Part shown: one piece after another, positions 6,293-37,576 of the stretch
Position numbering within the stretch: position 1 is the first letter of the stretch
How the letters are laid out: each line of letters opens with the position of its first letter
Source of the DNA: a virus
Taxonomy: Duplodnaviria; Heunggongvirae; Uroviricota; Caudoviricetes
Strand: one strand, 5' to 3'
DNA length: 64,000 bases
Virus record (IMG/VR): IMGVR_UViG_2698536484_000026
The notes under the pieces: generated by a model
Databases searched by the model: none
Seen by the model: only the letters and a program-made list of their open reading frames with translations
What the model was told of the DNA's origin: nothing
Made by a program: the position numbers and the translations under genes

Positions 6293-6351
6293 AGCCTGCT
6301 TCTGTATATATAAATAACTACATATTAATTATTAATATACGGAAGCAGGCT
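6293..6351. repeat. Large inverted-repeat element (copy 1 of a conserved element)
   Basis: Perfect 10-bp arms AGCCTGCTTC / GAAGCAGGCT around a 39-nt AT-rich loop containing CTGTATATATAAATAA; repeated at 37413-37461. Confidence 0.5.
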
Positions 6352-6456
6352 GTTTTGTATCAGAGACTCCAGACCTGAACATCACTACAGAATCCACTAG
6401 AACCCTTCCCAGACGCTTTAAAATCGATTTTATGAACCACTTTAAGGAAAACTAAC

Positions 6457-6687
6457 ATGCCATACCCGACCAATGTTGTTGCGCTCGTAGAGAGCGATTT
6501 TCTGGCTAAGGCTCGTGAAATGATGAAAGATCGCGAGCAGGCTTTCAACTTGTACGAATGGGCAATTAAGTGCTTGCATCTTGGGGAGCATCGCGAACTT
6601 GTTGAACAGCTTTTAGGTGAGTTGATCAACGAGGTGTTTGCCTTGAATGTTCAACTACATGGTCGAGAAAATAATCAATCGAAATGA
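6457..6687 (+). CDS. Hypothetical small protein
   Basis: ORF with RBS-like AAGGAAAA upstream. Confidence 0.35.
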   Translation: MPYPTNVVALVESDFLAKAREMMKDREQAFNLYEWAIKCLHLGEHRELVEQLLGELINEVFALNVQLHGRENNQSK

Positions 6688-7271
6688 TAGATAAGTACAA
6701 ACTATTCATAAGATGAATTGTAAGTGCTAAGATCTGATAGTTTCCAGTCGTAGACTGGAGACTCGACCTGATGGGTGGGGGTAAGCGTCACTGGCGTCAG
6801 GTTTAAAAAAGTTCACTACCAGCGTAGAACCGGTGCCGTTTAGGTGTCGGGGAAGGGGGAACCAAAGTGAGCGGAGACAAGGGTCACTTTATGATTGTCG
6901 AGTCTGGGGTGTTTCGAGAGGTTGAATCCAGTACTCCCCTTCATAAAGTGTGGGAAGATCTCGGTTCTGGGGTGCTGTCATCCATAACTTCCCAAGTCTA
7001 AGCTGGCAGTAGACTTAGACCATAACTTTTCAGGTTATGAAACGACCAGGTTGGTGAGGGATTTTTATACTCACCTCCCTGGGAGAGTATTACCTGAAAA
7101 GACAACCTCTCACTTCGTTCGAGGTGAACTTCACTCACTTCGTTCGTTCAGTTCAGGTTTATAAAAACCTGTTCTGGGAAGTAATTTGTTTATTTTAATA
7201 ATTATTAACACGCACGCGTGTGCGCACGCGCGAGGAAAAAAATCGGCGCGGCGCTTGATTCAGGAGTTTAT

Positions 7272-7865
7272 ATGACGACGAAGACACCAGCCCGATCGCA
7301 AGCAAAAACTCGCAAAAAAGCCAAAAACAAAAATTCTCCCCGCACCAATCCCACAACGCCTGTCGTAGAGTTCAATCCCCAGCTTAAAACCGTGAAAATC
7401 TTCAGTGATGGCTCTTGCCTTAAAAATCCGGGTGGCCCGGGCGGTTACGGTATCGTTCTTCAGTATCGTGGAGAGGAACGCGAGTTCTCAGATGGTTTTC
7501 ATAGCACCACCAATAACCGCATGGAGATGATGGGGGCACTTATCGGGCTGGAGCGTTTGAAATATCCATGCAACGTTATTTTACACTCTGATAGCCAGTA
7601 TCTGAAAAACGGCATGACACAGTGGATGAAATGGTGGAAACGCAATGGATGGATGACTTCTGACAAAAAACCGGTAAAGAATGTTGATCTGTGGAAGCGT
7701 CTGGATGAGGCCGCAAGTCGACATAATGTTCGCTGGAAGTGGGTTAAAGGTCACGCCGGGCATCGTGAAAATGAAATATGTGATCGACTCGCGAAGATCG
7801 CAGCTTTTTCAGCAGCAGATATGCCTCACAAGAAAGATATTGGTTTTGTTTATAACAAGCGGTAA
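7272..7865 (+). CDS. rnhA: Ribonuclease H (RNase HI-like) with basic N-terminal extension
   Basis: [52 protein letters not shown] match RNase HI. Confidence 0.75.
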
Positions 7866-8010
7866 GTAAGTGTTTACCTATCATTTTAAATCATGTATCT
7901 TATCGGCGTCAGGATGACAATGTGTCGGTAAGACACAGTTCCAGGATGGAACGAGAAAGGCGGCTGGCAATCGCCAGCCGCAACTCTTTCTGACACTGGA
8001 TGGAGTCCAC

Positions 8011-8505
8011 ATGGCACGTCAAACCTATTTCACTTCTGCAACTAAACGTCCTCGTTCTTTACGTCAAATTTTGGCCGAATTATTTAGCGGTCGTGTTATG
8101 TCACGTCTTGATGAACTAGAGACTACCGTTCGGTTGCTGAATGAACGTTTAGATAATCAAGCGTCAGTTGTTGCGAACGTGGGGGCGATTGTTGCCTCTG
8201 GTTCTTCACGCGAAGCGAAAAGTACACGGCCTTTAGTGAAGGAGAAAAACAACAAGGACAGTTCGAATGGAAAATTTTCAAAGAAAGAGGCTGAAACCAA
8301 TGGCCTACGTTCTCATTATAGTTTCACTGGCGACGGTAGCCGTTCCAGCCGGCCAGAGCCTTTTGATGCCGGATTCATCCATCACCACACCTTCGTCGAC
8401 GACAATTACCACCACTCCAGTGGAGCGTCCTGTCACTCTGGATGGGATGGCGGTGGATGCGATACCTCAAGTTCATCCAGTTACTCAGGATCATGCTGTG
8501 ACTAA
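8011..8505 (+). CDS. Hypothetical protein (C-terminal part questionable; overlaps next ORF in another frame)
   Basis: Good RBS and coiled-coil-like N-terminus; C-terminal 60 aa looks like out-of-frame low-complexity translation. Confidence 0.25.
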   Translation: MARQTYFTSATKRPRSLRQILAELFSGRVMSRLDELETTVRLLNERLDNQASVVANVGAIVASGSSREAKSTRPLVKEKNNKDSSNGKFSKKEAETNGLRSHYSFTGDGSRSSRPEPFDAGFIHHHTFVDDNYHHSSGASCHSGWDGGGCDTSSSSSYSGSCCD

Positions 8506-8518
8506 GGCGGTTGTATGA
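8267..8518 (+). CDS. Small membrane/secreted protein
   Basis: Hydrophobic segment MAYVLIIVSLATVAVPA; stop overlaps next start (ATGA). Confidence 0.35.
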   Translation: MENFQRKRLKPMAYVLIIVSLATVAVPAGQSLLMPDSSITTPSSTTITTTPVERPVTLDGMAVDAIPQVHPVTQDHAVTKAVV

Positions 8519-8703
8519 ACTGGTTTTCAAATCACTTTGGAAAAATTTGGCTGGCAATTCTTGCCCTCATGGCCGCCGGTTGGGTATCGAACATTATAAA
8601 ACTTGTTTGCTCTGGCGATCTCCAGTTTCAGGCTGGCATGACCTTGGCTCGTGTAGTTGGGATTTTTGTTTTTCCAGTTGGTTCGGTACTTGGTTATTTC
8701 TGA
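8515..8703 (+). CDS. Small membrane protein (two hydrophobic segments)
   Basis: IWLAILALMAAGWV and VVGIFVFPVGSVLGYF hydrophobic stretches. Confidence 0.4.
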   Translation: MNWFSNHFGKIWLAILALMAAGWVSNIIKLVCSGDLQFQAGMTLARVVGIFVFPVGSVLGYF

Positions 8704-8796
8704 CGGCTGTTAGTGCATATGCATTGACCATCTCTGCGTAAGCAATTTATGTAATTAGAAAACAACTTGTTTTGACAAATAATAAAAGGAAAACAC

Positions 8797-9222
8797 ATGT
8801 TAGGTTTCTTCAAAAAGAAAACTCGTAAAGCTGTTATCGAAGTCAAAAAAATGGAGAACCGTGATGCGGTTGAGGCCACCGTGTGGGGCGCGTACATGAT
8901 CTCCTATGCCGACGGCACATGTGACGCAAAAGAAATTGCCATTCTTGAGAAGACAATTGCAGCTCTGCCTGCGTTTTCTCCGTTTGCTGGTGAAATTGCC
9001 CAAATGAGCGCCAATATCCGTGCTCGTTACGAAGCGTCCCCTCGTTCTGCTAATGCACAGGCTATTCGTGAGCTGTCTGATATTGCGGGTACTCCAGAGG
9101 CGGTCGATGTTCTGTGTCTGTGCCTTGATATTGCCGATCAGGACGGCATTGGTGAACAAGAAGAGCAGGCACTGAAAAAGATCGCCCAGGCGCTTCAGTT
9201 GTCACTGGATGCTTATCTCTAA
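8797..9222 (+). CDS. TerB-like domain protein (tentative)
   Basis: YADGTCDAKEIAILE...DIADQDGIGEQEEQALKKIA resembles TerB-fold pattern; preceded by AAAACAA-N-TTGTTT motif. Confidence 0.45.
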   Translation: MLGFFKKKTRKAVIEVKKMENRDAVEATVWGAYMISYADGTCDAKEIAILEKTIAALPAFSPFAGEIAQMSANIRARYEASPRSANAQAIRELSDIAGTPEAVDVLCLCLDIADQDGIGEQEEQALKKIAQALQLSLDAYL

Positions 9223-9381
9223 TGCTTGAGAGATTCCGGCTTGTGATCGTCATTGCTCTTCTGGTGATGGCGGTGTTGGTGGATTTTACGGGAAAGATGA
9301 TGTCTGTCATTTCTGATGGCGTCCTCATTGGTTTGGCGATCTACTTCGCTTATCCGTTAGTTCGTAAAGCAAAGTGCTAAT
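9223..9381 (+). CDS. Small hydrophobic protein (52 aa)
   Basis: Mostly hydrophobic; ATG abuts previous stop; followed by terminator hairpin at 9383-9403. Confidence 0.3.
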
Positions 9382-9519
9382 GACAAGGGCCAAATGGCCC
9401 TTGTGTTTCGTTGACCGAAATAGAGAGTTTGCACCTTTACGTTTAGCTTGCTCCCCTTTTATGCCACATCACAATAAAGCCAATAAGAAAACAACTTGTT
9501 TAAGCATTAGGAAAAACAC

Positions 9520-10086
9520 ATGTGCAAGAAATGCAAAGCGATAGCTGATGAACAAAACGCCTTATTCGAAGAAATGGATGCTAATGAACTGGTCAAAATG
9601 TTAGCCATTCTTCGAGGAATAGAAGACGTTTCCATATTTGAGAGAGTGGTTACAGCACTTAATTATGAGTCCGCCTTTGAAGAGCCAACTCAGATTGTAG
9701 CTTTAGCACATCATTTCGGTGTTCATTATCTTGCTGAAAAAGAGAGAGCTGATAAGTTGCAAGCGACTTTGGATATGGTGAGCGAGACTCAAGGATCTCA
9801 TGACGGTAATAAAAGTGAGACGATTATTGCCAGCAAAGATCGTGAAATTGCCGGGCTTAAATCCTCTCTAACGATGTTGATGTCTGCAATTAACCTTATG
9901 TCTTCTAAAGCAGGTTATAAAATGCCATCACTAAACAGCGACGATCCGATGGCCGTTCGCCAGCTTTTAGGTGCAATGGCCGACCAGCTCGACGACACAA
10001 AGAGTCGCCTTGAAGACATGATGCGGGAGCTCACGCATCGCCATGACTTGAATAAGCAGCCGCACAAAACGCAATACGCACTCTAA
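9520..10086 (+). CDS. Hypothetical protein
   Basis: ORF preceded by conserved AAGAAAACAACTTGTTT motif and RBS; terminator hairpin 10104-10119 after it. Confidence 0.45.
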   Translation: MCKKCKAIADEQNALFEEMDANELVKMLAILRGIEDVSIFERVVTALNYESAFEEPTQIVALAHHFGVHYLAEKERADKLQATLDMVSETQGSHDGNKSETIIASKDREIAGLKSSLTMLMSAINLMSSKAGYKMPSLNSDDPMAVRQLLGAMADQLDDTKSRLEDMMRELTHRHDLNKQPHKTQYAL

Positions 10087-10227
10087 TACTGCACCAGTCG
10101 ACAGGGGGCGAAAGCCCCCATTTTTACGCCTTAAATCTGCTGTAACGCCTATGAATGCAGCTTTTATGCCTTTTCAAGTTTGCGATAATTACACCAATCA
10201 GAAAACAAATTATTTAATGGTGTAATT

Positions 10228-11913
10228 ATGAATACAGCCCTTTCTATCATCGACGATGCCAGCTCAAACACGGCTATCGACTATCGTCAGGAAATGAATG
10301 TCATCCACGAAATCGTGGCCGAGTGCGAGAAAGAGATCGCCTTCATGTATCAGGTACACGACTTCGTTTATGGCGACGAACGCCACAACATGATTAATCG
10401 CCTGCTGAGACTAAACCATCGACCAGATGAAGATCGCTCGCGTTTAAATCGAGGTTGGTTGGATAAAGTCGATCTGGAATGGGTGAAACAGAATATTTGG
10501 GCCGAGTACTGGAGGAAGGTCACGGACATGACTAACGTTTTGCTGATCATGCCAGCTTCCCGTCGAGATGAGTGGCGCGAGCAGTTTATAGAGGGCAAAC
10601 AGGAAGTCATCAAAACTGACAGAACCGGCTACCAGATGAAGGTTAAAGAGTTCGTTGGTGTACCGGAGTTCAAAGCAGAAACGGTCATACCCACGATGCT
10701 TAATTTGCTGAATGACAGGCACAAATATCTCTCTGAGCGCGTGTATGGCTTGTTTAAGGCGCTGAGTCCTGCGCACAAGACAAATAAGACAAACGGTTTC
10801 AGCGAGCGTCTGATAATCGCTGACTGCATTTCTGATTTCTGGCGGGACAGCGTTAGCGTGAACTATCGCAAAGAGGACTACATCGACGATCTGCGTGTCT
10901 TGCTTCATTTCTTCGCGCACAAAGAATTTATTACCATCAACCGCACTGCTGAGGTGCTATCAGCTGCGTATAGGGCAAACGACTGCCAGACCGGTGACTG
11001 GATGAACGTCGATGGAAATCTGATGCGCGTGAAGATGTTCAAGAACGGCAACGTTCACTTTGAAATACATCCTGACGTGGCCTGGAAGTTGAATGAGGTG
11101 CTGGCTTACAGTATGCCTGCTGCAATCCCCGCGCCATGCCGAACTGCGCCAAAAACACGGGCACCAAAGCAGTTCGGTTTAATCCAGAAGACGATCTCCG
11201 TGCCGGTTCGCACTGCGCTTCGTGACGGGCGATTGAGCAAAGACAAAGGCGTATGGTACTTCTCTGATTCAGCTCTCCAGAAGTCGCAGGTGGAAGAGCT
11301 TGAGCGCACACTTAGCTTCATTGGCGGCGTGCAGGAGAAAAAGCACTGGCAGTTCCCGTATGAGATCGGCCATACGCTAAATACGATTGTGGCTACCGGA
11401 TTAATACCGGATACAAAATCACACCAGTTCTACCCTACCCCACGCTTGATTGCTGAGTACGTTGCCAGAGCCACTGAATTGAAGCCTGGTGAGAAGCTGC
11501 TGGAGCCTCAAGCCGGACGTGGGGAGCTTCTGGCCTATATTAACGCCGATCTGGAAGATGTTACCTGCATAGAAATCGCACCTCTCTTCGCTGATATCCT
11601 GCGTGGAAAAGGGTATACGAACACGATTTGCTGCGACTTCATAAAGTGGTCTGAGGACAACGCAGGTTATCAGTTCGACAAAATCGTTATGAACCCGCCG
11701 TACTCGCTTGGTCGTCATAGAGAGCACACGATGGCTGCGCTGGGGCATCTGAAAGTCGGCGGGCGTCTTGTAGCAGTATTGCCGGGCACTGCGCCAATAC
11801 TGGACTGGATGACGATGGATAATTACGTTTATGCCAGAGGGAAGTCGTTTACCAACGAGTTTGAAGATACCGGGATCACAGTCAGCGTATACGTTTTCAA
11901 ACGCGTTAAATGA
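10228..11913 (+). CDS. Putative N6-adenine methyltransferase fused to a large N-terminal domain of unknown function
   Basis: C-terminal FYPTP, EPQAGRGELL and NPPYS motifs; N-terminal 380 aa unassigned. Confidence 0.6.
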   Translation: MNTALSIIDDASSNTAIDYRQEMNVIHEIVAECEKEIAFMYQVHDFVYGDERHNMINRLLRLNHRPDEDRSRLNRGWLDKVDLEWVKQNIWAEYWRKVTDMTNVLLIMPASRRDEWREQFIEGKQEVIKTDRTGYQMKVKEFVGVPEFKAETVIPTMLNLLNDRHKYLSERVYGLFKALSPAHKTNKTNGFSERLIIADCISDFWRDSVSVNYRKEDYIDDLRVLLHFFAHKEFITINRTAEVLSAAYRANDCQTGDWMNVDGNLMRVKMFKNGNVHFEIHPDVAWKLNEVLAYSMPAAIPAPCRTAPKTRAPKQFGLIQKTISVPVRTALRDGRLSKDKGVWYFSDSALQKSQVEELERTLSFIGGVQEKKHWQFPYEIGHTLNTIVATGLIPDTKSHQFYPTPRLIAEYVARATELKPGEKLLEPQAGRGELLAYINADLEDVTCIEIAPLFADILRGKGYTNTICCDFIKWSEDNAGYQFDKIVMNPPYSLGRHREHTMAALGHLKVGGRLVAVLPGTAPILDWMTMDNYVYARGKSFTNEFEDTGITVSVYVFKRVK

Positions 11914-11974
11914 TAGGTAAATACTTACTTAATTTGTGTAAGAATGTAGTAACTAAACGAGAAGAGAAAAACAC

Positions 11975-12679
11975 ATGAGCAACCTCCAGTTAGAGCATTT
12001 TAACGTCACAGGCCGTTCTGATTTTTCTTTCAAGTTTACATTGAAAGGTTATGCAGAGGATGCGGTAGGCCAGATCATTATTGATAAAGGCATCGTTAAG
12101 TTTGAGGGGGATTTTGATGAATCCGCGAAAACATTCATAGACTTCGTTGCCAAACGTTGGAGCGAGCAATGGAAAGACCTGGAAAAGCGCGCTAATGAGT
12201 TTGATCGGTTCATGGATGCAATGGATACAGCAAAAGAGGCTCTTGCTGCCGGGACTCCGTTAGATCTGGAGTCACTTTTCAACGGCGAAGTGGCCTCTGC
12301 GATGTTCGCCACCATGTTCGCGGGTGAGTTCGTCCGCAGCGGTGCCAAAAACTACCTTGAGCTGGATTACAACGTCCCTGCAATTGGCGATTTCGTCGTT
12401 ACCATCCAACGCAAAGAAGGTAAGACGCCAGGTGAACGCGTCGCAGAGCTTGAGGCTGTTGTGGATCAGCGTAACGGAGAGTGTGACCGTTTGATCAACG
12501 AGCTTCATGCACTTCGGGAAGAAAGAATATGCGCGGGTAGCAATACACGTAATGCTGCGGATATCTACTTCCAGTTAGTTGAGGAATGCCAGATTCCACC
12601 AGGTGGCTCTCTTGTCGATTACGTCAGACATTTAATGGCGGAAGTTAACTCCAGCCATAAAGATGGTGAGGTGCGCTGA
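11975..12679 (+). CDS. Hypothetical protein
   Basis: ORF with RBS; stop overlaps next start. Confidence 0.45.
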   Translation: MSNLQLEHFNVTGRSDFSFKFTLKGYAEDAVGQIIIDKGIVKFEGDFDESAKTFIDFVAKRWSEQWKDLEKRANEFDRFMDAMDTAKEALAAGTPLDLESLFNGEVASAMFATMFAGEFVRSGAKNYLELDYNVPAIGDFVVTIQRKEGKTPGERVAELEAVVDQRNGECDRLINELHALREERICAGSNTRNAADIYFQLVEECQIPPGGSLVDYVRHLMAEVNSSHKDGEVR

Positions 12680-13059: not shown

Positions 13060-13178
13060 GCGCTACAAATCCTTCTGCATGAATAAATAAAGGCCATAAC
13101 TTATGGCCTTAAATAAATTGTTTTCTGCCTTTTCTTATTTGTGAAAATAACCACAACTAGAAAACAACGGAGTTAAGA

Positions 13179-21850: not shown

Positions 21851-21962
21851 ATAGACACAATCCCTCCTGATTTACACAAGCCCTAAAACAATTTGTTTTC
21901 TACCTTTTGTTGATTGAGATAATAAGCCGCATAAGAAAACAAATTGTTTCGGAGTGGTTGAA

Positions 21963-23623: not shown

Positions 23624-24689
23624 GTGTAATTAGCTTAATCAATCAGTTGATAATGGCGGTCACAATTTGATTCTTTTCTATAAGAATCCGTTGATCGCCA
23701 CTACTCTTCTTCCATACCTGCAATCACACCTTTAAATATCAATAGGTTAGCGTTGTTTATACCAATAAGAAAACAACTAAATAACAGATCAACGAAACGT
23801 CAACGCTTTCACCCGATTTGGTCTAAAAAATTGACGTTTTCACACATCACTGCTTATACCCGTAACTCTACGCAGCAGACAGCGCCACAGAGTCCAATTT
23901 TCACCACAGACGACTCAACACACTACCAACAAAAACACACGCTCAAAATCGCTCCCGCTGCGTTACACAACCATATAAACAACATATTTTCAGGTATAAC
24001 AAAACAACTAAATAACACATATGCCATTCCCCAAAACAACCAACCTCTTTATGGCAGGCTACCGAAAAGACCCACCTCTTCTCCCCAGGCTACTGGACAA
24101 CCAACCTAACTTTCACAGGCAATCCGAAAACATTCATACGCGCGATACCCACGACACGCCATTCCCCAAACAGCGAAGAAACACCAGAATCACTGAAACC
24201 CCAACGAAGCCTGTAACCGCAAGGATTCTCTCAATCCCAAAAGACTCGAAGCATAACAATCACGGGAAACGCCATTACCCAATACACGAATAACTACAAA
24301 AGCCTTTCACACACTCCAGACAAACAACTCAAACACAATAACGAAAGGAATCGCCCACCTGCCATTACTCCATACACGGAGAAGAACAATCACCAAAACG
24401 ACGAGAACACCCCATAGAAGAACCACCGCAAAACGAACGAAACCACATACACCGACAGAGAAAACAACACACCCAATTCACCAACAGAAATAGTCGCCGT
24501 ATAGAACATTCTGGAAGGAGTGAGCATTAACGCCTATAGAGAGGTTGAGACAGATAAAACACAACATGTATAGCGAAGAAGCCAGGTATGTATAAGTGGG
24601 GAGGGAAGGAGGGGTGTCGCCTCCTTTTTCGTATTTATTCAACTCCTGATTTTATCCCCCCGTAACACCCCTACGGTCAGCCTTCGGTC

Positions 24690-24835: not shown

Positions 24836-25185
24836 ATAGCGAGAGGGAGAGTTGCGGCTACCCACCTGTAATGTGCGGGAAGAAGAGAGGCGCTCACGTA
24901 GGCGGACTTGCTTACCGCTGGATTCCCTCTGAATGCCCAGCTACAGCGTAATTGTGCCAGACAGCCAACGGGTCACAATCGATTTCAGTAGGTTTTCGGG
25001 GAGAGGATTATTCTGCCCACCAGCCACCTTCGGCCACTAAATCAGAATAATGTAAAAAGTATACTCGGTACTGAACCTGAAAACTCACTGCCAAAACCAT
25101 ATTCACCGGAATAAAATCCTTTTTCGCCTGTGCGTTATTGCGATAATAACACCATCAAGAAAACATGTTGTTTAAGGATTGCTTT

Positions 25186-25515: not shown

Positions 25516-25668
25516 CCCCAACCAAAGCCAGCAATGCTGGCTTAATTTCTCTATAGCCGCAGGGAAGAACCTGCATATCGCTCATGCACCTGATCAATAT
25601 GCTTTGTAGCCGTTTTCTTACTGGTATTATTTACGCCATTGAGAAAACAAGTTGTTTACGGAGTTGTA

Positions 25669-26502: not shown

Positions 26503-26577
26503 TCCTCTTTAAATGGCGCGTAAACCGCGCCATTTTATTAAGCCCGATAACAATTTGTTTTCTGCCTTATCTGATTT

Positions 26578-26994
26578 GTGAAAATGATTTCACTGAAGCA
26601 ACTTAATAAGGAAACCATCATGGGACTTGATATCTATATCGAGACACAGCCTAAAAACGATCTGAATAACGAGGCATCCAGAAAGCAGGTTGCTTACTTC
26701 CGTAAGTTCAATGCGCTCGTTGGGTGGATGGAGCGCAACGTAGGTGAAGTCGAAAATTGTGAGCTTTTAGAATTAACGATGAATGACATTTGTTTTCTGA
26801 AGGCTCATTTGATGCACATAAACGAAAGTAATTGCGAAGAGTACTTGCCTACCCGGGAAGGTTTTTTCTTCGGCAGTCAGGAGTACGATGAAGGTTACTG
26901 GCATGATGTGGGGCAGTTGAAAGAGCTTGTGGAAGATCTGATTAAGAACCACGACTTTCACAATAACAGACTGACCTTCTGCGCCTGGTGGTAA
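26578..26994 (+). CDS. Hypothetical protein
   Basis: Preceded by conserved AACAATTTGTTTTCTGCC...TGTGAAAAT element. Confidence 0.4.
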   Translation: MKMISLKQLNKETIMGLDIYIETQPKNDLNNEASRKQVAYFRKFNALVGWMERNVGEVENCELLELTMNDICFLKAHLMHINESNCEEYLPTREGFFFGSQEYDEGYWHDVGQLKELVEDLIKNHDFHNNRLTFCAWW

Positions 26995-27344
26995 ATATGG
27001 GCGATTTCAAGAAACGCCTGAAGGAAAGAGCCGAGATGGTCAGAAAGCAAAACGCCTCTTCTGTCATCAGATACGCAAGGCAGTTTAGTCGCAACAACAA
27101 ATCAGTTGAGGAAAAGATCCTTAGCGTAATCGTGCGATAATTATTAAGGCCATCAGCATTGGTGGCCTTAAATGACCATCTTGTTTCCCGCAGGCTAAAA
27201 ACACCAACCTCTTACCTCCAGGCAACCGACAAACCCACCTGTTCCCGTCCGGCTACCGCAACTTTCCACTTTGACGCCTTATTCGTACAACGATAATTAA
27301 CACCAACAAGAAAACAATTTGTTATTTACGATAAGGAATTAATC

Positions 27345-28040: not shown

Positions 28041-28434
28041 ATGACTTTCGTCACCTGAGACATCCAGATTTCTTTCGTAGCATAATCACATACGTGATTA
28101 AGTGGTGTGATTATGTGAAAAATCACGCGCACATAATACGCGAGCGGATACGGAACAAAACAAAATGCCGATCCGCGCCGACAAATAAACGCGGATCATA
28201 AAGCAAGACTAAAAGCCAATGATTAACTATGCGCTATAACGCGTTTTAAGCGCGTTAATGTGTTAAGTAATGGGTATGTACTGGCAAGGATATAAAAGCG
28301 CGTCTATGGCGTTATTTTGGCGCTTATTTTTATGTTGTTGGAGTGAGTTAAAGACAATAAAAAACGCGCCATCAATGGCGCGTTATTGTGGAAGTATTGG
28401 AAACGAAAAAAGCGCCCATAGTGGGCGCTCGATT

Positions 28435-28665
28435 TTATTTGTGTAAACTGATTTTAAATCCCATTTCTACGAACGCTTTTAACATTAAAAATATATCAGC
28501 GTCGTTCACGTCTGCTTTTTTTCGCTCCTGGTCGCTCAATAAGTCAATTTTGCGCGTCGTTTCATCTATAAGCTCGACTACGCGCCCAGCGTAACCAGCG
28601 ATCCCAGCGATGCGATTAACATAATATTCATTATGGACGTTAACGCCAGCGATAAGAACAAACAT
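28435..28665 (-). CDS. Hypothetical small protein (AT-rich cassette)
   Basis: Minus-strand ORF bounded by GCGCCCATAGTGGGCGC hairpins. Confidence 0.35.
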   Translation of the reverse strand: MFVLIAGVNVHNEYYVNRIAGIAGYAGRVVELIDETTRKIDLLSDQERKKADVNDADIFLMLKAFVEMGFKISLHK

Positions 28666-28685
28666 GATTAAGCTCCTTAAAAAAA

Positions 28686-28889: not shown

Positions 28890-28938
28890 TTTTCAAAGCT
28901 CCTTTAAAGCGCCCATAGTGGGCGCTTGATTCCATTAA

Positions 28939-29882: not shown

Positions 29883-30407
29883 TTAAAATGGAAGGATTCG
29901 TTCAACCCAATCGAAGAAAACAAGTATTTTTCTGCCGTCTTCTAACTTAAGAGTGACCTGGCAAGCATCAACGCCTCTTGACACCCCTTCAATTTCACGA
30001 CCGTCTGCCATGTAGACCCTTATAGATTGGTCGTTTTGATAAGCCTTGCGACATATCGCAAAAAAGTCACGGCGTGATGGCTGATTGTCAACATAGTCTG
30101 GATGTATTGTTAGCCTACCTTTGAACTCGCGAGCAATGCCATCGATTACACCTGATTCAATTGTGCTAATGCGCTCAAGTGGGAGTCTTATACGATTTTC
30201 TTTATCATATGGAAGCGGGCATAAATCTAGCTTATTGCGGGAAGGCATTGTCCCCTGAACGTACATGCAAAACACCTGACCGTCTTCAAGCGTGACTCTT
30301 ACAGGAATGTTGTTCTTCCGCCAGAACATAAGTATGTTTTCAGCATGTTCGTAGTCTCGCGGCCAGACTTCAGCCGGTATGCCGTAGGTGATGTCCGATG
30401 TTCTCAT
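29883..30407 (-). CDS. Hypothetical protein (last gene of three-gene AT-rich operon)
   Basis: Start overlaps stop of upstream gene by 4 nt. Confidence 0.45.
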   Translation of the reverse strand: MRTSDITYGIPAEVWPRDYEHAENILMFWRKNNIPVRVTLEDGQVFCMYVQGTMPSRNKLDLCPLPYDKENRIRLPLERISTIESGVIDGIAREFKGRLTIHPDYVDNQPSRRDFFAICRKAYQNDQSIRVYMADGREIEGVSRGVDACQVTLKLEDGRKILVFFDWVERILPF

Positions 30408-31018: not shown

Positions 31019-31507
31019 TTATTTAACATCACACTTTCTAAGTTTTTCTATTTGTTCTAATTTTTCATGATCATCATTTAGATTTCCTTCGACTATCTCC
31101 GTTTCAAGTTTGCTGATTAGCATGTTAAGTGCGTTGTAGTTATTGCATTTTACTTTGTAGGCGTAGTATGACCTTGTCCCTGGTTTTTGTACACCCATAT
31201 CATTAAAGTTAGAGCTTAAAGTATAACCTTCAAGTTCAACCCCTTTTATTGTTGGAAGAATTATATTTAATGGTTCTAATTTAAATGGGTAGATATAAAT
31301 ATGTGATATGAAGTACTCTTCTGAAGAGATTTTCTTCATGTCTTTTGTGATTGAAACTGAATATTTACGGTTCCGAGTGATATAAAATTTTGTGCATCTG
31401 TACAGCTCTAAGTTGAATAGATAATATTTGTCTTTAAAAAGAACATCTTTTCCATGTGATATTTTATGTCGTAAAGAGTTAATTATTTTGTTTATGGAAA
31501 TACTCAT
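31019..31507 (-). CDS. Hypothetical protein (K/I/N/Y-rich)
   Basis: Directly abuts downstream gene; very AT-rich coding sequence. Confidence 0.4.
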   Translation of the reverse strand: MSISINKIINSLRHKISHGKDVLFKDKYYLFNLELYRCTKFYITRNRKYSVSITKDMKKISSEEYFISHIYIYPFKLEPLNIILPTIKGVELEGYTLSSNFNDMGVQKPGTRSYYAYKVKCNNYNALNMLISKLETEIVEGNLNDDHEKLEQIEKLRKCDVK

Positions 31508-31652
31508 CTACAGTATCCGACCTTAGTTATCAATTGAAAAGCCTACAAATATCGTTCTGCCAATCAAGAAATTTTTTCAGCCGGAGGTGTGTACTTCAAA
31601 AAATGTGATGGATGTCACATGCAGGTGCTCTCATACACCTGCATGTAGACTA

Positions 31653-32252
31653 TTAATCATTCAATAATCTATATTTTCTTTTGATTAAATCTTCACCTTT
31701 TTTGGTGAACACAAAACCAAATTGCGATTTTTTGTTCAGCCTCAGTACTCTGTTATCCAACGCATCGGTTGATGGAATCAATGTTTGATCATCTATCCAA
31801 TTAAGTAGCGTAAGAAAGTTCAGCAGCCTCAACGTTGTTGTGCGAAGCTCTTTCGATATATTTTCAATGCTGGCAATTCGTCTTTCTTTTTTCTCAGGTG
31901 GTACAGATAATTGTTCTTGAGGTTTCGTGGATAGATAATCAATTTCGTTTGCTGCATCGAATGATATGTGTGGCGTAATTTTGCTAAAAAAGCCTTTCGC
32001 TGACTCACTTGATAATAAACCAGACCTATTCATATCGTTTGTTATTCTGTACAGGAGTGGACTGTGTTTCATTTCAGGATAACGTTGATAAAAGTTAAGC
32101 AATTCAAAAGCAGCATTAGCACCAACAATAAAATCAGAAGGATCGCTGACTTTCCAGAAAGAATGATTTTTCTTAGCGCCAGTGGTGTCAACAAATGATA
32201 ATTCTTTTAACCAACTCATGATGTGCTCCTTTCTAACAAGTGAGCACATCAT
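31653..32252 (-). CDS. Hypothetical protein
   Basis: Followed on minus strand by a perfect 10-bp inverted repeat CATGCAGGTG/CACCTGCATG. Confidence 0.45.
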   Translation of the reverse strand: MMCSLVRKEHIMSWLKELSFVDTTGAKKNHSFWKVSDPSDFIVGANAAFELLNFYQRYPEMKHSPLLYRITNDMNRSGLLSSESAKGFFSKITPHISFDAANEIDYLSTKPQEQLSVPPEKKERRIASIENISKELRTTTLRLLNFLTLLNWIDDQTLIPSTDALDNRVLRLNKKSQFGFVFTKKGEDLIKRKYRLLND

Positions 32253-32284
32253 AGAATTAGTAGATAGGGGGTAAATATAAAATG

Positions 32285-32563
32285 TTACGGCAACCTGCTC
32301 AGTATTTCCTCTAAATCTTTTTTTGTCATATTGGAGTTTTCATAGATGCGCATGATTTTCTCACGCGTCTTAGCGGAAACCCCAACGGCAGATGTGACTT
32401 TGTCAAATTCAGCCATAGTCATCGTCTCCAGAATGGCATTGATAACTTCAGCCTTAGACATCTTGATTTTTTTCTCTTTGAGTTTTATTTGGAATTTTCC
32501 AAGTTTTTCATTGGCCTTATCAGACAATGCCACTTGGCAATAAGTTGTTTTCTTTTCGCTCAT
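32285..32563 (-). CDS. Hypothetical small protein
   Basis: Coupled to helicase gene stop. Confidence 0.4.
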   Translation of the reverse strand: MSEKKTTYCQVALSDKANEKLGKFQIKLKEKKIKMSKAEVINAILETMTMAEFDKVTSAVGVSAKTREKIMRIYENSNMTKKDLEEILSRLP

Positions 32564-32565
32564 AA

Positions 32566-34125
32566 CTAATCTCGTTTCAGAACTCCAAAATCGAATGCGC
32601 CATCAATAGGCAATACACCTTCCGCAAAGCCAGGTGTGGTGTCGATGATGTGTTTTCGCTCATAAGAGTGAGACAACAGGTATTTGTTGCTAATGTCAAT
32701 GAAATCAGTGATAAAACACACGTTTGCCTGATTCTTCTTGGCTCGTAAGCCACGACCGACACGTTGTCTCATTTCAACTTCTGCTTTCCCACCACCAGCA
32801 AGAATGACCGCACCAACGCTTGGCACATCAACACCGACATCCAGAATAGTCGAGCCTATTAAAACATCTATTTCGCCAGACGCTAAACTGTTCAGCTTTG
32901 CTTGTCTTGTCGCCTGGTTCGATTCCCCATAGATAAAGTCAACTCTAAGGCCTGACTCCTTCATCATCTCCATCAGGATTTGCCCGTGGCGTTTAAGACG
33001 AACTAGAGTCATACAATTGAGAGAATGTTGCTTATAGAGCAATGCCTCGCGCACTATGGCCTCGTTACGTCCCAAATTATACACGATCCCCAACTGATAA
33101 GCCTTTTGGTAGGCGGTGCTCATACCAACTCTAAAATTGAGGTGTTTGTTGGCAAGTTCGGCCTTGATTCTGGCCTCGTCTGGCTTGTAGGCAACTTTAT
33201 GATAAAGGAAGTACGGCTTTGCCAGAATGCCTCGATCAATCAGGTACTTTTCTGTGACTTTAATTTCAATTCGCCCGGCCACCGCCATCAGACGCATGTT
33301 GGCTTCCGTCGAATCCTTCATGAACGGCGTGGCCGTAAGCGCCAGACGATAGTCTGCGTTCACACATAATCTGGCAATGTCATAGAAATTAGAACCTGAA
33401 GACTCATGCGCCTCTTCCAGAATAAGCAGAGACACACTTGAAAGGAAGCGTTTCACCAAGTCCCGACGTTTGAGGTGGTAGCTCTTCTTATCTGGAGTTG
33501 CATCGCGTGGTGGTTCTTCAAGGAAACTTGCCAGAGTTTGAACTGTAGCGACGTTGATATGTCGTGATACCTGGAACTCACCCGAGCCAATGACTCCAAC
33601 CTTTTGGTCTTTTAACCACGGTTCGCCATTTTTGGCGCGGTAGTCGATGGATCTCTGGAAGTTTTCGGCCATTTGAAACATCAGAACAGAGCGGGTTGTT
33701 AAAAATAATGTCATTCGACCGATACGTGCAGCTGCTTTACAGGCAACGTTAGATTTCCCGCCACCAGTAGCGATTTGCGCAATCATCATTCCCTCTCGAA
33801 CTAGTGTTTCCACAGTCTGATCCTGATACGCATAATCAGGATTGTATGGGAATGGGTTAACCGCCGGATTTGGTTTACCAAGCGCCGGGGCTTTGTCTTT
33901 GCGGATATGAACACATCTGATGCCCGCCTTGTTCAAGTTCGCCGCTACAGGCTTGGCAAAGCCAGCAGGGAACGAGTTTTTACTCCAGTTGAACATCGTG
34001 CTTGTGCCCTTCCAGTCGCCAGTCTCGACTTCGTAGCTCAACATTTGCTGCACCAGTTGCTTTACCTTGTCATCTGCGCCAGAAATAAGCGCATTTACTG
34101 CGTTAGATACAATCCGAACAGTCAT
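32566..34125 (-). CDS. Superfamily 2 DEAD/DEAH-box type helicase
   Basis: Walker A ATGGGKS, LILEEAH, LALTATP, RVGRGLR helicase motifs. Confidence 0.7.
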   Translation of the reverse strand: MTVRIVSNAVNALISGADDKVKQLVQQMLSYEVETGDWKGTSTMFNWSKNSFPAGFAKPVAANLNKAGIRCVHIRKDKAPALGKPNPAVNPFPYNPDYAYQDQTVETLVREGMMIAQIATGGGKSNVACKAAARIGRMTLFLTTRSVLMFQMAENFQRSIDYRAKNGEPWLKDQKVGVIGSGEFQVSRHINVATVQTLASFLEEPPRDATPDKKSYHLKRRDLVKRFLSSVSLLILEEAHESSGSNFYDIARLCVNADYRLALTATPFMKDSTEANMRLMAVAGRIEIKVTEKYLIDRGILAKPYFLYHKVAYKPDEARIKAELANKHLNFRVGMSTAYQKAYQLGIVYNLGRNEAIVREALLYKQHSLNCMTLVRLKRHGQILMEMMKESGLRVDFIYGESNQATRQAKLNSLASGEIDVLIGSTILDVGVDVPSVGAVILAGGGKAEVEMRQRVGRGLRAKKNQANVCFITDFIDISNKYLLSHSYERKHIIDTTPGFAEGVLPIDGAFDFGVLKRD

Positions 34126-34189
34126 AAACCTCTTTCCTTAGTGCCTTTTGTATGTTATTTGGCTATTATAATAAGTAAGTGATTACTTA

Positions 34190-34888
34190 GTGGATTGTAG
34201 CAATAAAATGGATGTAAAAATCACGATTTTGCAGGTTGATGTTGCCAACCTTCGCCCGAATACCTGGAACACCAATTCGGTTGGTGCGCAGAATTTTGAA
34301 AAACTGAAAGGTTCTATCGAAAAATTGGGCTTTTTTAAGCCAATTTTGGCTCGTGAACTTGAAGATGGATTTTTTGAAATCCTCGGCGGCGAACATCGCT
34401 GGCGTGCCGCTATTGAGCAAGGAATTTCAACGGTTCCGGTGCTTTCTGTGGGCAAAATTAGCGATGTCGTAGCTAAACAGATGTCACTGGTGGACAACGA
34501 GCGATACGGTGAAGACGACCAAATCGCATTGCAACGCTTCATTGAAGAAATTCAGTCAGAACTTGACTATCAACTGTCTGAAATCGCCCCGTATGACGAC
34601 GAAATCTCGATGGTTTTAGCAAAAGAGGCGGCAATCGACCTTGAAGCACTGGAGGCGTTGTCTCGTGGTAGTGATGAGCCTGTCGATACCGACAAACGAG
34701 AGAAAACCGAACGTGTGGGTGCGGAACATCAGACCATGCGCTTCAAAGTAACTTTCGATGCGTCAGATCGTGTTGCAGAAACCATAAAAAACATCATCAA
34801 AGAGCAGGCTATTAACACCGGTAATGAAATGGAGAACGCTGGTGAGGCTCTGGTGTGGCTGGTCGACTACTACAAGGAGCGTATGTAA
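34190..34888 (+). CDS. ParB N-terminal domain (ParB/Srx fold) protein
   Basis: FEILGGEHRWRAAIEQGISTVPVL. Confidence 0.6.
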   Translation: MDCSNKMDVKITILQVDVANLRPNTWNTNSVGAQNFEKLKGSIEKLGFFKPILARELEDGFFEILGGEHRWRAAIEQGISTVPVLSVGKISDVVAKQMSLVDNERYGEDDQIALQRFIEEIQSELDYQLSEIAPYDDEISMVLAKEAAIDLEALEALSRGSDEPVDTDKREKTERVGAEHQTMRFKVTFDASDRVAETIKNIIKEQAINTGNEMENAGEALVWLVDYYKERM

Positions 34889-35556
34889 TGACCAAAAAGT
34901 TTGAAATCGTATATCGCGACCCGGCAGATCTTATTCCCTATGAGATGAATGCCAAAAAGCATGATGAACAGCAGATCCGAGATCTGGCCGCAGCCATTAA
35001 AAAGCGCGGATTTGACCAGCCAATTACGGTCGATAAGAACGACGTAATTATTACTGGCCACGGCCGCCGTGAGGCTGCAATTTTTGCTGGACTTGAGCGC
35101 GTACCGGTTATTGTTCGCGATGATCTCAGTGATGACGAGGTTCGTGCGAAGCGCCTTGAAGATAACCGACTTGCCAGCATTGATTACGATGCAATTAAGC
35201 TACAGAAAGAGCTTGAGTCGCTTGTTCTGGACGATATCGAGGTTTTCGGCTTTGAAGAGCGTGAGTTGAATGTTCTCGTTGGCAGTATGACAGAAGAAAT
35301 GGACACCGACTCGCTAGTTATCGATCTTGGCGAAGAAACTAAACGACAGAAGGATGAACACACCGAGATCAGTCGTGAAGTTGCAGCGGAAGAAGTACGT
35401 GTTGTCGACGTATTGGGCTTTAAAACGCTCCCTGCTGGCTCTGCCATTGTTGTTGGTGATTTGCTTGCCCACATGGAAGAAATGACGGGAGAAAGCGGGG
35501 TAGACGCATTTGTGGCATATGCGGAGAAGATCTCTTCTGGGGAGATGGCTGCATGA
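34888..35556 (+). CDS. ParB N-terminal domain protein (second tandem copy)
   Basis: ITGHGRREAAIFAGLERVPVIV; ATG overlaps previous stop. Confidence 0.6.
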   Translation: MTKKFEIVYRDPADLIPYEMNAKKHDEQQIRDLAAAIKKRGFDQPITVDKNDVIITGHGRREAAIFAGLERVPVIVRDDLSDDEVRAKRLEDNRLASIDYDAIKLQKELESLVLDDIEVFGFEERELNVLVGSMTEEMDTDSLVIDLGEETKRQKDEHTEISREVAAEEVRVVDVLGFKTLPAGSAIVVGDLLAHMEEMTGESGVDAFVAYAEKISSGEMAA

Positions 35557-36218
35557 GCAAATACATCATCAACGTATCGTTTCAGACACGCGTAAATAAA
35601 ACCACGCGCACGTTGGAAATCGCTGAGTCGTTCGGGCTTGGCCTGGACGAAAAAGAGTGGACGCTTTACGACAATCTGGAGCTGGAAGTGAAGCAGGGCG
35701 ATGTGGTGTATATCACCGGCCAATCCGGTTCCGGCAAATCCGTTGTGCTGCGCGAGTTGCAACGACAGATGAAGGATGAAGGGCTGTCTGTAGCCTCCAT
35801 CGATGATTTTACCTTCGATAATGAGGTTAACGTCATCGATCAGTTGGGCAAAACGACCAGCGATGCGCTTGGGTTGTTATCTATGGCTGGTCTGAACGAT
35901 GCATATCTGTTTGTTCGCAAGCCTTCTGAAATGTCAGACGGTCAGAAATATCGTCTCAAGATTGCCAAACTGATTGAGTCAGGCGCTAAAGTGTGGGCTG
36001 CTGACGAGTTCGGTGCTGTTCTAGACCGTGTAACCGCTCAGGTTGTGGCATCTAACCTCCAGCGTGCCGCTCGAAAGGTTGGTGCGACGGTAATGGTGGC
36101 GACGACTCACGAAGACCTGAAGAACGCGCTGCGCCCGGATATGCAGATCACCAAGCACTACAAAGAACGCGTGAAGGTGGAATATCACAATGGTAGTCAT
36201 GATGAGGTCCATTCATGA
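35553..36218 (+). CDS. ABC-type ATPase domain protein
   Basis: Walker A GQSGSGKS, signature-like SDGQKYRLKIA, Walker B AADEF, H-loop TTHED. Confidence 0.55.
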   Translation: MSKYIINVSFQTRVNKTTRTLEIAESFGLGLDEKEWTLYDNLELEVKQGDVVYITGQSGSGKSVVLRELQRQMKDEGLSVASIDDFTFDNEVNVIDQLGKTTSDALGLLSMAGLNDAYLFVRKPSEMSDGQKYRLKIAKLIESGAKVWAADEFGAVLDRVTAQVVASNLQRAARKVGATVMVATTHEDLKNALRPDMQITKHYKERVKVEYHNGSHDEVHS

Positions 36219-37105
36219 CGGACATCATCATCAAACGCTACCGCCCTGAAGAGTTTCCGCGTCATCTGGACTTTCTGGAGCGAATGACTGTCACAAAGGG
36301 AACTGTAGAGGACTGGCACGCTCTTAAGTCGCTTCACTACAAAACAGACGGCAAACCTTTCGCGCCAACATACTATCGCTGCGAACTGGATGACCGTCTG
36401 GTGGGCGTCGTGGTTATGGCTTACCCGAAACTACTGTTGGCACCTCGCCACCGCATGTTTCCTAAGTTGAAACCAACCACTAATACCACCGTGGCTAACC
36501 AGTACTGGGGTCGGTACGTGAATAACAACTTTGCGGTGATCAGTCGCTCAGTTGTGGATACTCAGTATCGTGGCGTAGGCGTCTCTTATCGAATGATTAA
36601 CCTGGTTAGCAGGATGCATGACCGGCCAATCATTGAGATCCAGTCCTCGATGAGCAAATACAATCCCTTCGCCATGAAAGCAGGGTTTAAGTTCATCCGC
36701 CCTGAGCGACCGAAGAGCTATGAAAGTGCACTGCGTGTGTTCCAGCGCCATTTCCGCTCCGACCCGGGTGATAACGAGGCGATCGTCAAAGAGTTGTTCG
36801 CTATGAGCGAGTCTCGTCGTCGCCGTGCGCTGCGCGATTTGGTGGCGGACTACCATAAGAACAGTTCCCTGGCAAAAGCTGGGCGGAATCGTGGCACGAC
36901 GATTCAGGACATTGCCGACAGTCTGGTGGACGAGGCCAGCATTGTGAAGCTGCTCAAGGACATTCACAACCTGAGCTTTACGTCTCCGTTGTATGGTGTG
37001 TACCGAAACCCTGACTTTGGCCGTCGACTGCCTGACACGCTGCCACTGCTGGCATTCGACAAACAACCTTTGGATAAACCGTTAGAAATTGCTTTACCGG
37101 CATAA
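36215..37105 (+). CDS. Hypothetical protein, possible GNAT-like acetyltransferase fold
   Basis: QYRGVGVSYRMI weakly resembles GNAT motif A; coupled to ATPase gene. Confidence 0.4.
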   Translation: MTDIIIKRYRPEEFPRHLDFLERMTVTKGTVEDWHALKSLHYKTDGKPFAPTYYRCELDDRLVGVVVMAYPKLLLAPRHRMFPKLKPTTNTTVANQYWGRYVNNNFAVISRSVVDTQYRGVGVSYRMINLVSRMHDRPIIEIQSSMSKYNPFAMKAGFKFIRPERPKSYESALRVFQRHFRSDPGDNEAIVKELFAMSESRRRRALRDLVADYHKNSSLAKAGRNRGTTIQDIADSLVDEASIVKLLKDIHNLSFTSPLYGVYRNPDFGRRLPDTLPLLAFDKQPLDKPLEIALPA

Positions 37106-37114
37106 GGATTTGCC

Positions 37115-37381
37115 ATGACGTTAACCGATAAACAAAAGGACATCATCAAAACGCTCAATCTCGGTTATGAGCGAGGTCATCTACTTGACCTGGACGAATT
37201 GCTTGAAGTTTTGCCGTACAAGACAACCAAGCAAAGTATCCAGTTCTCAATTCGCGCTCTGATAAAAAAGGGGCTGGTGGAGAAAGGGCATACGCGCCAA
37301 CGCAGTGACAATCGCTATCACCGCCGAACTCTTGGGTTAACCACTTTAGGTCGAGCCAAAGCGAAGTTACTGGTGATGTAA
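37115..37381 (+). CDS. Small basic protein, possible winged-helix DNA-binding
   Basis: 88 aa, basic; follows GNAT-like gene. Confidence 0.35.
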   Translation: MTLTDKQKDIIKTLNLGYERGHLLDLDELLEVLPYKTTKQSIQFSIRALIKKGLVEKGHTRQRSDNRYHRRTLGLTTLGRAKAKLLVM

Positions 37382-37412
37382 TCGGTCTGGGAGCTTATTT
37401 AAAGACCTGCAT

Positions 37413-37461
37413 CTGTATATATAAATAATAAGTAACTTATTAAATATATACGGAAGCAGGC
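37413..37461. repeat. Conserved element, copy 2 (CTGTATATATAAATAA...TATACGGAAGCAGGCT)
   Basis: About 50-bp match to 6302-6351; both followed by CCAGACCT within 30 bp. Confidence 0.5.
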
Positions 37462-37576
37462 TTCGTAAGACATGCCAGACCTAATTAAACACCCCAGAAA
37501 ACAAGTTGGTTAGCAGATGCAGTAAACAAGTTGTTTTAGAGCGCATGGACGCGCTCTGTGTGTTTTAGAGGGATCT

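Follow-up and report, generated by a model that had tools for sequence, protein, structure and literature searches.

What is the large inverted repeat that occurs twice in a 64,000-nucleotide stretch of tailed-phage DNA (IMG/VR record IMGVR_UViG_2698536484_000026; the window hereafter means this whole stretch), once behind a Dam methyltransferase gene and once ahead of the terminase genes? An initial annotation, made from the letters of the sequence, had described it as two copies of an 80-bp element that might be a promoter, an origin or a packaging signal. The repeat is a conserved functional cis-element family of three copies, not a chance repeat, and at the third copy, as seen in a phage-plasmid closely related to the window, per-gene expression points to a highly efficient stop of transcription in lysogenic cells. 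The evidence for this, and the question of what else the repeat may do, are considered below.

The repeat copies and their distribution

The two loci in the window share two exact strings, CTGTATATATAAATAA (6302-6317 and 37413-37428) and ATATACGGAAGCAGGCT (6335-6351 and 37446-37462), neither of which has a further exact copy there. When up to three mismatches are allowed, each of the two patterns finds four matches in the window, a number that none of 100 shuffled sequences reaches. Scanning with a position weight matrix (PWM), in which true sites score 28-47 bits and the background stays below 20, gives exactly four half-sites, that is, two palindromes; those of copy 1 score 39.9 and 32.4 (noise <12) and those of copy 2 score 42.5 and 33.2. 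According to the repeat finder, the copies are 81% identical over an ungapped core of 57 nt. Global alignment of the whole spans claimed in the initial annotation has 71 of 96 columns identical (74%), above the level of about 70% at which that claim was to be given up, and shuffled controls for the same alignment reach 50±3%, with a maximum of 59%. With exact shared strings, high core identity and far lower values in shuffled sequences, the two-copy repeat is therefore real and not a product of chance.

The core of copy 1 (AGCCTGCTTCTGTATATATAAATAACTACATATTAATTATTAATATACGGAAGCAGGCT, 6293-6351) does carry the perfect 10-bp arms first reported for it, AGCCTGCTTC and GAAGCAGGCT around 39 nt. These can be extended to arms of 17 nt (6293-6309 and 6335-6351) that are 94% complementary, the one mismatch being T·G, and that stand 25 nt apart; copy 2 is a near-complete palindrome. 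On either side of the core lies a member of an outer inverted repeat (GGTCTGGGAG...CCAGACC), which brings the whole unit to ~100 bp. The left partner of this repeat upstream of the copy 1 core is GTTCTGG, and in Salmonella phage SSU5 the repeat is perfect over 9 bp (GTCTGGGAG...CTCCCAGAC). The downstream CCAGACCT, which had been noticed at both loci and is indeed found there, follows the core after ~18 nt in copy 1 and after 13 nt in copy 2. The proposed size of 80 bp does not describe the element, whose conserved core is ~57 nt, or ~100 nt if the outer inverted repeat is counted.

The gene context agrees with the first description, as judged from Pfam and phrog matches. Copy 1 begins 22 nt past the Dam stop codon, and copy 2 sits 115 nt upstream of the gene pair for a terminase small subunit-like (terS-like) protein and the terminase large subunit (TerL, gene terL). 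More generally, each copy lies 15-25 nt past the stop codon of a co-directional gene and ~100-130 nt ahead of the next one, and the three copies share one orientation relative to the genes.

By its similarity to known genomes, the window can be assigned to the SSU5-like phage-plasmids: it is 98-100% identical to Escherichia phage CMS-2020a over the searched regions, ~97% identical to PhiR41_1 and Cyrano (pLF82), and ~79% identical to SSU5. Three copies each are present in CP054387.1 and SSU5, and the count of two holds for the window, close relatives having a third copy outside its extent. In CMS-2020a this third copy falls beyond the stretch that the window matches; it is oriented to the genes as the other two are and is placed after a KAP-NTPase gene, upstream of a gene for a 249-aa protein that is followed by that of a DnaB-like helicase. 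The third copy of CP054387.1 has the same loop as copy 2 of the window and differs from it at a few core positions. SSU5 has one copy before terS, one at 33.46 kb before the helicase-primase block and one at 78.3 kb after Dam. A pattern scan of IMG/VR extends this picture to more than 100 instances from E. coli, Salmonella, Klebsiella, Yersinia and Kluyvera elements, all of them in three positional classes (after Dam, before terS, and before DnaB-primase). The possibility that the repeat is a miniature inverted-repeat transposable element, or a mobile element of another kind, was rejected, as nearly all IMG/VR matches come with an SSU5-type core and their positions are syntenic. The few matches without such a core are unrelated sequences, the 49-nt matches in metagenome 3300045988 are unrelated as well, and patterns that are too short give apparent chance matches in this database.

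A scan of the whole window against Rfam gave no match at the gathering threshold, and the literature searched, which did not include the SSU5 genome and D6 papers, contained nothing on SSU5 termini, cos, pac, origin, operators or palindromes. As far as these searches show, the element family has been described neither by Rfam nor in any paper.

Transcription across the copies and hairpin potential

Per-gene RNA-seq values are available for Cyrano, a 97-99% identical phage-plasmid, in LF82 lysogenic cells, expressed as log2(fpkm+5), where fpkm stands for fragments per kilobase per million reads (PMC9928086, S1 Table). Upstream of the third copy, CYRAN_28, CYRAN_29 and CYRAN_30 (parA, a ribbon-helix-helix (RHH) gene and CYRAN_30 itself) reach 5.2-10.8, and downstream of it CYRAN_31 stays at 2.3-4.2, near baseline (PMC9928086, S1 Table). 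Computed from these values, expression falls at least 100-fold across the third copy, which is the sole hairpin in the 194-nt spacer between CYRAN_30 and CYRAN_31 of Cyrano and consists of perfect 18-bp arms followed by TTTT. Across copy 2 the fall is only ~2-3-fold, the gene of the 88-aa protein p88 reaching up to 6.6 and terS 4.9-5.6 (PMC9928086, S1 Table). This modest fall fits the lack of a U tract at copy 2, which is probably leaky as a terminator. At copy 1 no fall can be read, since the Dam gene upstream is silent in the Cyrano lysogen. From homology and structure, we infer that copies 1 and 2 of the window act likewise as stops.

Folding of the gene strand as RNA supports a stable hairpin at each copy, with z-scores of -5.9 for copy 1, -8.0 for copy 2 (-44.2 kcal/mol) and -7.0 for the third copy. 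The third copy of Cyrano folds at -35.1 kcal/mol (z -9.1), and copies 1 and 3 of Moellerella reach z-scores of -7.2 and -7.7. Hairpin potential is thus strongly kept at copies 1 and 3 (z -6 to -9 in E. coli, Cyrano and Moellerella), while at copy 2 it is variable, strong in the window and weak in Moellerella. The 3' tract of the third copy reads TCTTTC or TCTTTT. The consensus terminator scanner called no copy; the loops exceed the 3-8 nt to which this scanner is limited.

Is the pairing itself what selection maintains? Among 29 distinct cores from the window clade, 9 of the 15 arm pairs are invariant. No compensatory changes were found in this set, and the covariation score (0.058) equals the shuffled mean, 225 of 500 shuffles scoring as high. 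Pair 9, the most variable one, occurs as CG (6), TA (4), TG (15) and CA (5), which is near independence of the two arms. The core is better conserved than the flanking spacer DNA when the window is compared with SSU5. The arms are thus complementary as conserved copies of one sequence, and not by way of compensated pairing. The absence of covariation together with the invariant arm pairs points to sequence-specific recognition besides any structure.

The half-site in divergent lineages and its possible readers

Divergent members of the family, reached via terS homologues, keep the order of the genes (two ParB-N proteins, an ABC-type ATPase, a ~296-aa protein that some records label ABC-type ATPase, the 88-aa protein, the element, terS and terL), and they carry the element at the same three intergenic positions. 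The arms are lineage-specific and common to the copies of a genome (Table 1), the half-site of the window clade being ATATACGGAAGCAGGC. In Moellerella there are three inverted pairs, whose spacers measure 55-95 nt, and another four half-sites that stand alone. In the divergent Klebsiella plasmid, Dam is followed by a lone half-site, the left arm at terS is degenerate and, next to the parA cassette, two convergent half-sites flank a separate terminator-like hairpin. In a distant relative from Acinetobacter the module is absent altogether. Because single half-sites and lineage-specific arms occur in these relatives, the unit is taken to be an asymmetric module of ~25-30 bp, made up of an AT-rich flank, a TATAC-GGAAGCAGGC GC box and usually a T-rich tail; such tails come after the GC box in the majority of copies and lineages. 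The palindrome is two of these modules back to back, which in the window lineage abut to form a near-perfect palindrome of ~57 bp. The spacing of the boxes is helically unphased (43-47 bp in the window clade; 65, 98 and 105 bp in Moellerella). Given arms that are constant within a genome and change in concert across lineages, the half-site is probably read by a phage-encoded factor.

The reading that we prefer, and to which we would give slightly less than an even chance, is that the elements are hairpin terminators or insulators between gene blocks whose half-site sequence is also constrained, probably by a phage-encoded reader. Transcribed along with the genes, the element would fold into a long hairpin, which at copy 1 and at the third copy would be followed by a U tract, and this hairpin would halt or strongly attenuate read-through and thereby insulate the blocks. 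The boundary at copy 1 would separate the genes from nucleotide metabolism through Dam from the RNase H block, that at copy 2 the ParB/ABC/p88 genes from the terminase and virion genes, and that at the third copy the partition genes from the DnaB-primase-replication genes. A phage-encoded factor would read the half-site, the putative candidates being the 88-aa winged-helix protein, which has weak matches to Sta1, Lrs14, LexA-N and RosR, and the terS-like protein. Such a reader could plausibly let lytic transcription pass or restart, or mark packaging entry at copy 2. That a dedicated phage reader switches the three palindromes in lytic growth, by antitermination or restart and/or by offering multiple packaging entry points, is a tentative proposal that we place well below an even chance.

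Several observations weigh against the terminator/insulator explanation. The RNA-seq evidence concerns the third copy of a relative and consists of per-gene expression rather than mapped 3' ends. The 3' sequence of copy 2, GCTTCGTAAG, is without a U tract, and copy 2 of the divergent Klebsiella (z -0.4) and that of Xenorhabdus form no hairpin. A pure hairpin model leaves the single half-sites and the convergent pair of Klebsiella unexplained, the 55-95 nt spacers of Moellerella are atypical for intrinsic terminators, and the arm mismatches are inconsistently G·U on the sense strand, as copy 1 of SSU5 and of Klebsiella has C·A. As to the reader, p88 and the terS-like protein have putative reading helices that hardly vary across lineages with different boxes, for which reason a test of helix-box co-variation is uninformative.

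On one hand, the half-sites could be purely DNA-level operator or activator sites of a phage regulator that controls the heads of lytic operons, the hairpin potential being a by-product of two sites set back to back. The asymmetric unit, single or paired, in either orientation and at unphased spacings of 43-105 bp, is consistent with this possibility, as are the arms without covariation and the fact that all copies of a genome change together by lineage. Moreover, the single sites of Moellerella are intergenic, 100-130 nt ahead of genes, two such sites come just past terminator-like hairpins, and the small winged-helix gene is conserved beside copy 2. The C1 operators of P1 and the KorB sites of RK2 provide precedents for dispersed sites. 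On the other hand, the gene strand shows no sigma-70 promoter within or beside the elements, the distance from the box to the conserved motifs downstream varies from 8 to 43 nt between lineages, and one site lies inside nrdA. Strong hairpin potential with T tails is kept at copies 1 and 3 even in Moellerella, and the per-gene RNA-seq shows transcription stopping at copy 3. A role restricted to operator sites is regarded as unlikely, though worth keeping in view.

The same searches bear on the promoter role that had been suggested for the element, which finds no sigma-70-type match on the gene strand to support it: a search for -35 and -10 hexamers with 16-18 nt spacing gave no plus-strand match in 6100-6600 or 37200-37700, and one weak minus-strand match inside copy 1. 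Other promoter and operator types were tried and rejected. For a T4-late-type promoter, the conserved TATAAATA is only marginally enriched in the window (6 observed versus 1.9 expected), its orientation to the GC box flips between lineages, and no sigma-like gene is annotated. The T4 MotA box (TGCTTC) and a T7-like promoter (TATGGGAGC) were resemblances that are unconserved across lineages, and no phage RNA polymerase is annotated. The central palindrome AATAAGTnACTTATT, taken as a separate operator family, is unenriched in enteric genomes.

It could also be proposed that the terminase recognises or cleaves the elements, with copy 2 as the pac or cos site and the others as extra or auxiliary packaging sites. 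Copy 2 is close to the terS/terL pair, its two-fold symmetry with an AT-rich centre would suit such a site, and the terS-like protein has an N-terminal helix-turn-helix. In addition, the linear SSU5 record begins at a point that corresponds to window position 37443, inside the copy 2 loop, and once its two ends are joined, every base agrees with the circular relatives and none is missing or duplicated. The cut can be read as a physical end, or else the assembly or the authors of the record may have placed it at a palindrome. TerL (Terminase_6N/3, with P74-26 as the nearest solved relative) is ~25% identical to its closest counterparts, the terminases of Jersey-like, Dhillonvirus-like and T5-like phages. 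Such phages use headful or direct-terminal-repeat packaging, where the presence of several pac sites is tolerable. Against a packaging role, the three copies of a genome are near-identical, which excludes a unique cos site, and copies 1 and 3 are unlinked to the packaging genes and ~31 kb away from them. The start of the Cyrano record, which is 1 nt off that of SSU5, brings no independent evidence; it was rejected as a physical end, as virome coverage equals the plasmid background and no termini were determined. None of the 24 IMG/VR contigs with copy 2 starts inside the palindrome, and contig ends gather near all three copies, as repeat-driven assembly breaks would give; in fact, the repeats account for the frequent assembly breaks in SSU5-type plasmids. 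No report of SSU5 termini turned up in the literature searched. Of the three functions first suggested, the packaging signal is the only one with any support, in that adjacency to terS and the cut of the SSU5 record give some ambiguous support to copy 2, but not to the other copies or to a unique cos site. A pac role for copy 2 is possible, and packaging as the function of the family as a whole seems quite unlikely.

The third suggested function, that of an origin, would make the copies three lytic replication origins per genome, with inverted initiator boxes around an AT-rich unwinding element. The AT-rich centre between inverted boxes fits this view, and copy 3 stands directly upstream of the gene for the 249-aa protein, followed by those of the DnaB-like helicase and primase. 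Genomes with several origins are known from SPP1 (oriL/oriR), T4 and herpes simplex virus (oriS/oriL). However, the cumulative GC skew of SSU5 is monotonic, hence uninformative as to an origin, and has no inflection at any copy, copy 1 of Klebsiella is a single box, and its copy 3 is a convergent pair without an AT-rich centre. The 249-aa protein has no detectable homology, and no initiator has been identified. The origin role is not borne out by the skew or by the single and convergent half-sites of the relatives, and we consider it very improbable.

Equally doubtful is a role at the RNA level (RNase III processing, or 3' hairpins that stabilise mRNA) or as dispersed centromeres of a type Ib ParA/RHH system. 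Long stems resembling double-stranded RNA past stop codons speak for the former, while the single half-sites, the hairpin-less lineages, the lack of covariation and the lack of an Rfam match speak against it. As for centromeres, a ParA and RHH cassette lies upstream of copy 3 and, in the divergent Klebsiella, directly beside the sites, and N15 has dispersed palindromic centromeres. Nevertheless, the parA promoter carries another motif family (GAAAACAAnTTGTTT), which is likelier the RHH operator, and copies 1 and 2 are unlinked to partition genes.

Neighbouring features and comparison with known systems

The coordinates of the two copies and of the features around them are collected in Table 1, together with the arm sequences of the four lineages.

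Table 1. Parts of the two repeat copies, adjacent genes and signals in the window, and arm sequences by lineage.
Feature	Positions	Strand	Sequence or basis
Copy 1 core palindrome (left half-site, AT-rich centre, right half-site)	6293-6351	+	Repeat finder, fold, PWM
Copy 1 left half-site	6293-6309	-	Minus-strand reading ATATACAGAAGCAGGCT
Copy 1 right half-site	6335-6351	+	ATATACGGAAGCAGGCT; pattern search, PWM
T-rich tract directly 3' of the copy 1 hairpin (terminator-type U tract)	6352-6358	+	GTTTTGT
Copy 1 downstream motif, right member of outer inverted repeat	6369-6376	+	CCAGACCT
Copy 2 outer inverted repeat, left member	37384-37393	+	GGTCTGGGAG
Copy 2 core palindrome	37404-37462	+	Repeat finder, fold, PWM
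Copy 2 downstream motif, right member of outer inverted repeat	37475-37482	+	CCAGACCT
Dam methyltransferase gene, stop codon ahead of copy 1	5678-6271	+	Pfam PF05869, E 4e-37
76-aa protein, first gene past copy 1; synteny conserved	6457-6687	+	phrog_5343
88-aa winged-helix-type DNA-binding protein (p88), stop ahead of copy 2	37115-37381	+	phrog_900
terS-like DNA-binding protein (37577-38209) and terminase large subunit (38209-39465), downstream of copy 2	37577-39465	+	
Two operator-like motifs between copy 2 and terS	37497-37539	+	AGAAAACAAGTTGG, GTAAACAAGTTGTTTTAG
Terminator-like hairpin and T run just upstream of the terS ribosome-binding site	37537-37558	+	
Arm, window clade (E. coli, Salmonella, relatives)			TATACGGAAGCAGGC
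Arm, Moellerella pW1-b			TATGGGAGCTAGGC
Arm, divergent Klebsiella pRHBSTW-00636_4			ATAGGAGCCAGGC
Arm, Xenorhabdus			TATGGGAGCAAGGC

The interval between copy 2 and terS holds further signals. The hairpin listed there lies ~20 nt ahead of the terS start, is kept in SSU5 and has a similar counterpart in the Acinetobacter lineage; it suggests attenuation or antitermination control of the packaging and virion operon. The two operator-like motifs belong to a separate promoter/operator family, which is also found at the parA promoter. In each of the 12 or more copies of this second repeat family, an extended -10 promoter (TTGCGATAAT) precedes ACACCA...AGAAAACAAnTTGTTT, an operator-like palindrome of 15 bp. 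The family spans window positions 8744-28794 and 37497-37539 (examples: 9473-9501, 10162-10215, 13121-13174, 21896-21949, 25120-25173, 25604-25657, 26538-26585 and 27296-27324), stands upstream of many window genes, ahead of terS and at the parA promoter of relatives, and is probably the regulon of a global regulator. The SSU5-like plasmid NZ_CP107594.1 of Acinetobacter has more than 25 intergenic copies of the palindrome TTAGTAAGCGCTTACTAA, often followed by TATAAT (for instance at 30299, 32309, 34955, 39350, 65717, 99904 and 102761), which is a different genome-wide promoter/operator code of that lineage.

Among the proteins encoded near copy 2, the first ParB-N protein of some relatives (P0077 and P0078, relatives of 34190-34888) has an acidic C-terminal tail, PNLVFGELTPSQVA...EEEALSE, and the same tail is present on the terS-like protein. 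This hints that the ParB-N and terS-like proteins dock on the same partner, e.g., TerL, and that the ParB/ABC genes are packaging accessories. When a DNA-binding domain shared by the terS-like protein and the ParB-like proteins was sought, no similarity was found in the window. The type Ib partition cassette of CP054387.1 (32521-33548, minus strand) encodes a ParA/MipZ-type ATPase and an RHH protein; its equivalents CYRAN_28 and CYRAN_29 lie upstream of the third palindrome and are expressed in lysogens. The RHH protein is annotated as a RelE/ParE toxin in Cyrano, a label that looks wrong.

Elsewhere in the window, the 530-nt gap between the gene of the 76-aa protein and that of RNase H contains a 44-aa open reading frame (ORF) at ~6870-7000. 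In LF82 lysogens the expression of its homologue CYRAN_81 (Cyrano 78657-78791) exceeds the prophage background 12-fold (PMC9928086, Table 1 and S1 Table), and the ORF may be a small RNA or a moron. Direct-repeat arrays of ~30-31 bp (AAAACAACCAACCTC...CAGGCTACCG), with three copies at 24033-24129 and two at 27197-27262, flank ORFs at 25-27 kb and look like the iterons of a plasmid replicon. Near minus-strand maintenance genes, two hairpins AAAGCGCCCATAGTGGGCGCT with T-rich sequence (28409-28439 and 28906-28936) are 90% identical and 497 nt apart. Finally, the tail-fibre region (62004-63647) contains diverged 120-nt tandem or dispersed coding repeats (GGTAATGC...AAGTTGCAGAC...GATGG), and the ends of the window are unmatched in CP054387.1, from which it follows that the tail-fibre region is variable between close relatives.

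Phage-plasmids of the SSU5 type are frequent in clinical E. coli, Klebsiella, Salmonella and Yersinia, some of them carry resistance genes, and their regulation is almost unstudied. The strict conservation of the element at block boundaries, with a stop of transcription measured at one copy, provides a handle on how ~100 kb of lytic genes stay silent while plasmid-maintenance genes run. A dedicated reader that switches the three palindromes, as tentatively proposed above, would amount to a genome-wide, co-evolving "punctuation code" particular to these phage-plasmids. If a dedicated factor reads the element, this would bear on the switching-on of lytic development or packaging.

How does the element compare with systems already known? 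It resembles intrinsic terminators that act as operon insulators, for instance the long-stem or bidirectional ones that separate phage gene blocks, in having a stable, GC-anchored hairpin just past a stop codon, with a U tract behind it at copies 1 and 3, and a fall in expression of at least 100-fold across the third copy of Cyrano. It differs from them in its unusually long stems (17-25 bp), in spacers that reach 95 nt in Moellerella, in a sequence that is itself conserved across copies and species without covariation, in a copy 2 devoid of a U tract and in the occurrence of single half-sites. The RNase III sites of T7 and the repetitive extragenic palindromic (REP) sequences and bacterial interspersed mosaic elements (BIMEs) are intergenic hairpin-forming repeats at the 3' ends of genes, oriented with transcription, BIMEs being inverted pairs around a linker. 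Like them, the element is a family of intergenic hairpin repeats past genes that follows the direction of transcription; unlike them, it has three strictly syntenic copies per genome, no evident associated RAYT transposase, no sequence similarity to these repeats and no Rfam match.

Terminase small-subunit sites are represented by lambda cosB, with its gpNu1 R sites around an IHF site, and by SPP1 pacL/pacR. The likeness lies in protein-binding boxes, inverted or flanking, on both sides of a bendable AT-rich segment just ahead of terS, and in the SSU5 record that ends in the centre of copy 2, whereas the element has three copies, two of them far from the terminase genes, and its TerL is not of the lambda type. 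The dispersed asymmetric C1 operators of P1 and the dispersed palindromic centromeres of N15 share with the element the phage-plasmid setting and an arrangement of few dispersed, conserved sites that co-evolve and that stand, singly or in pairs, at the heads of lytic operons. The motif is a different one, however, and what sets the present element apart is its strong terminator-type hairpin potential and the stop of transcription measured at one copy.

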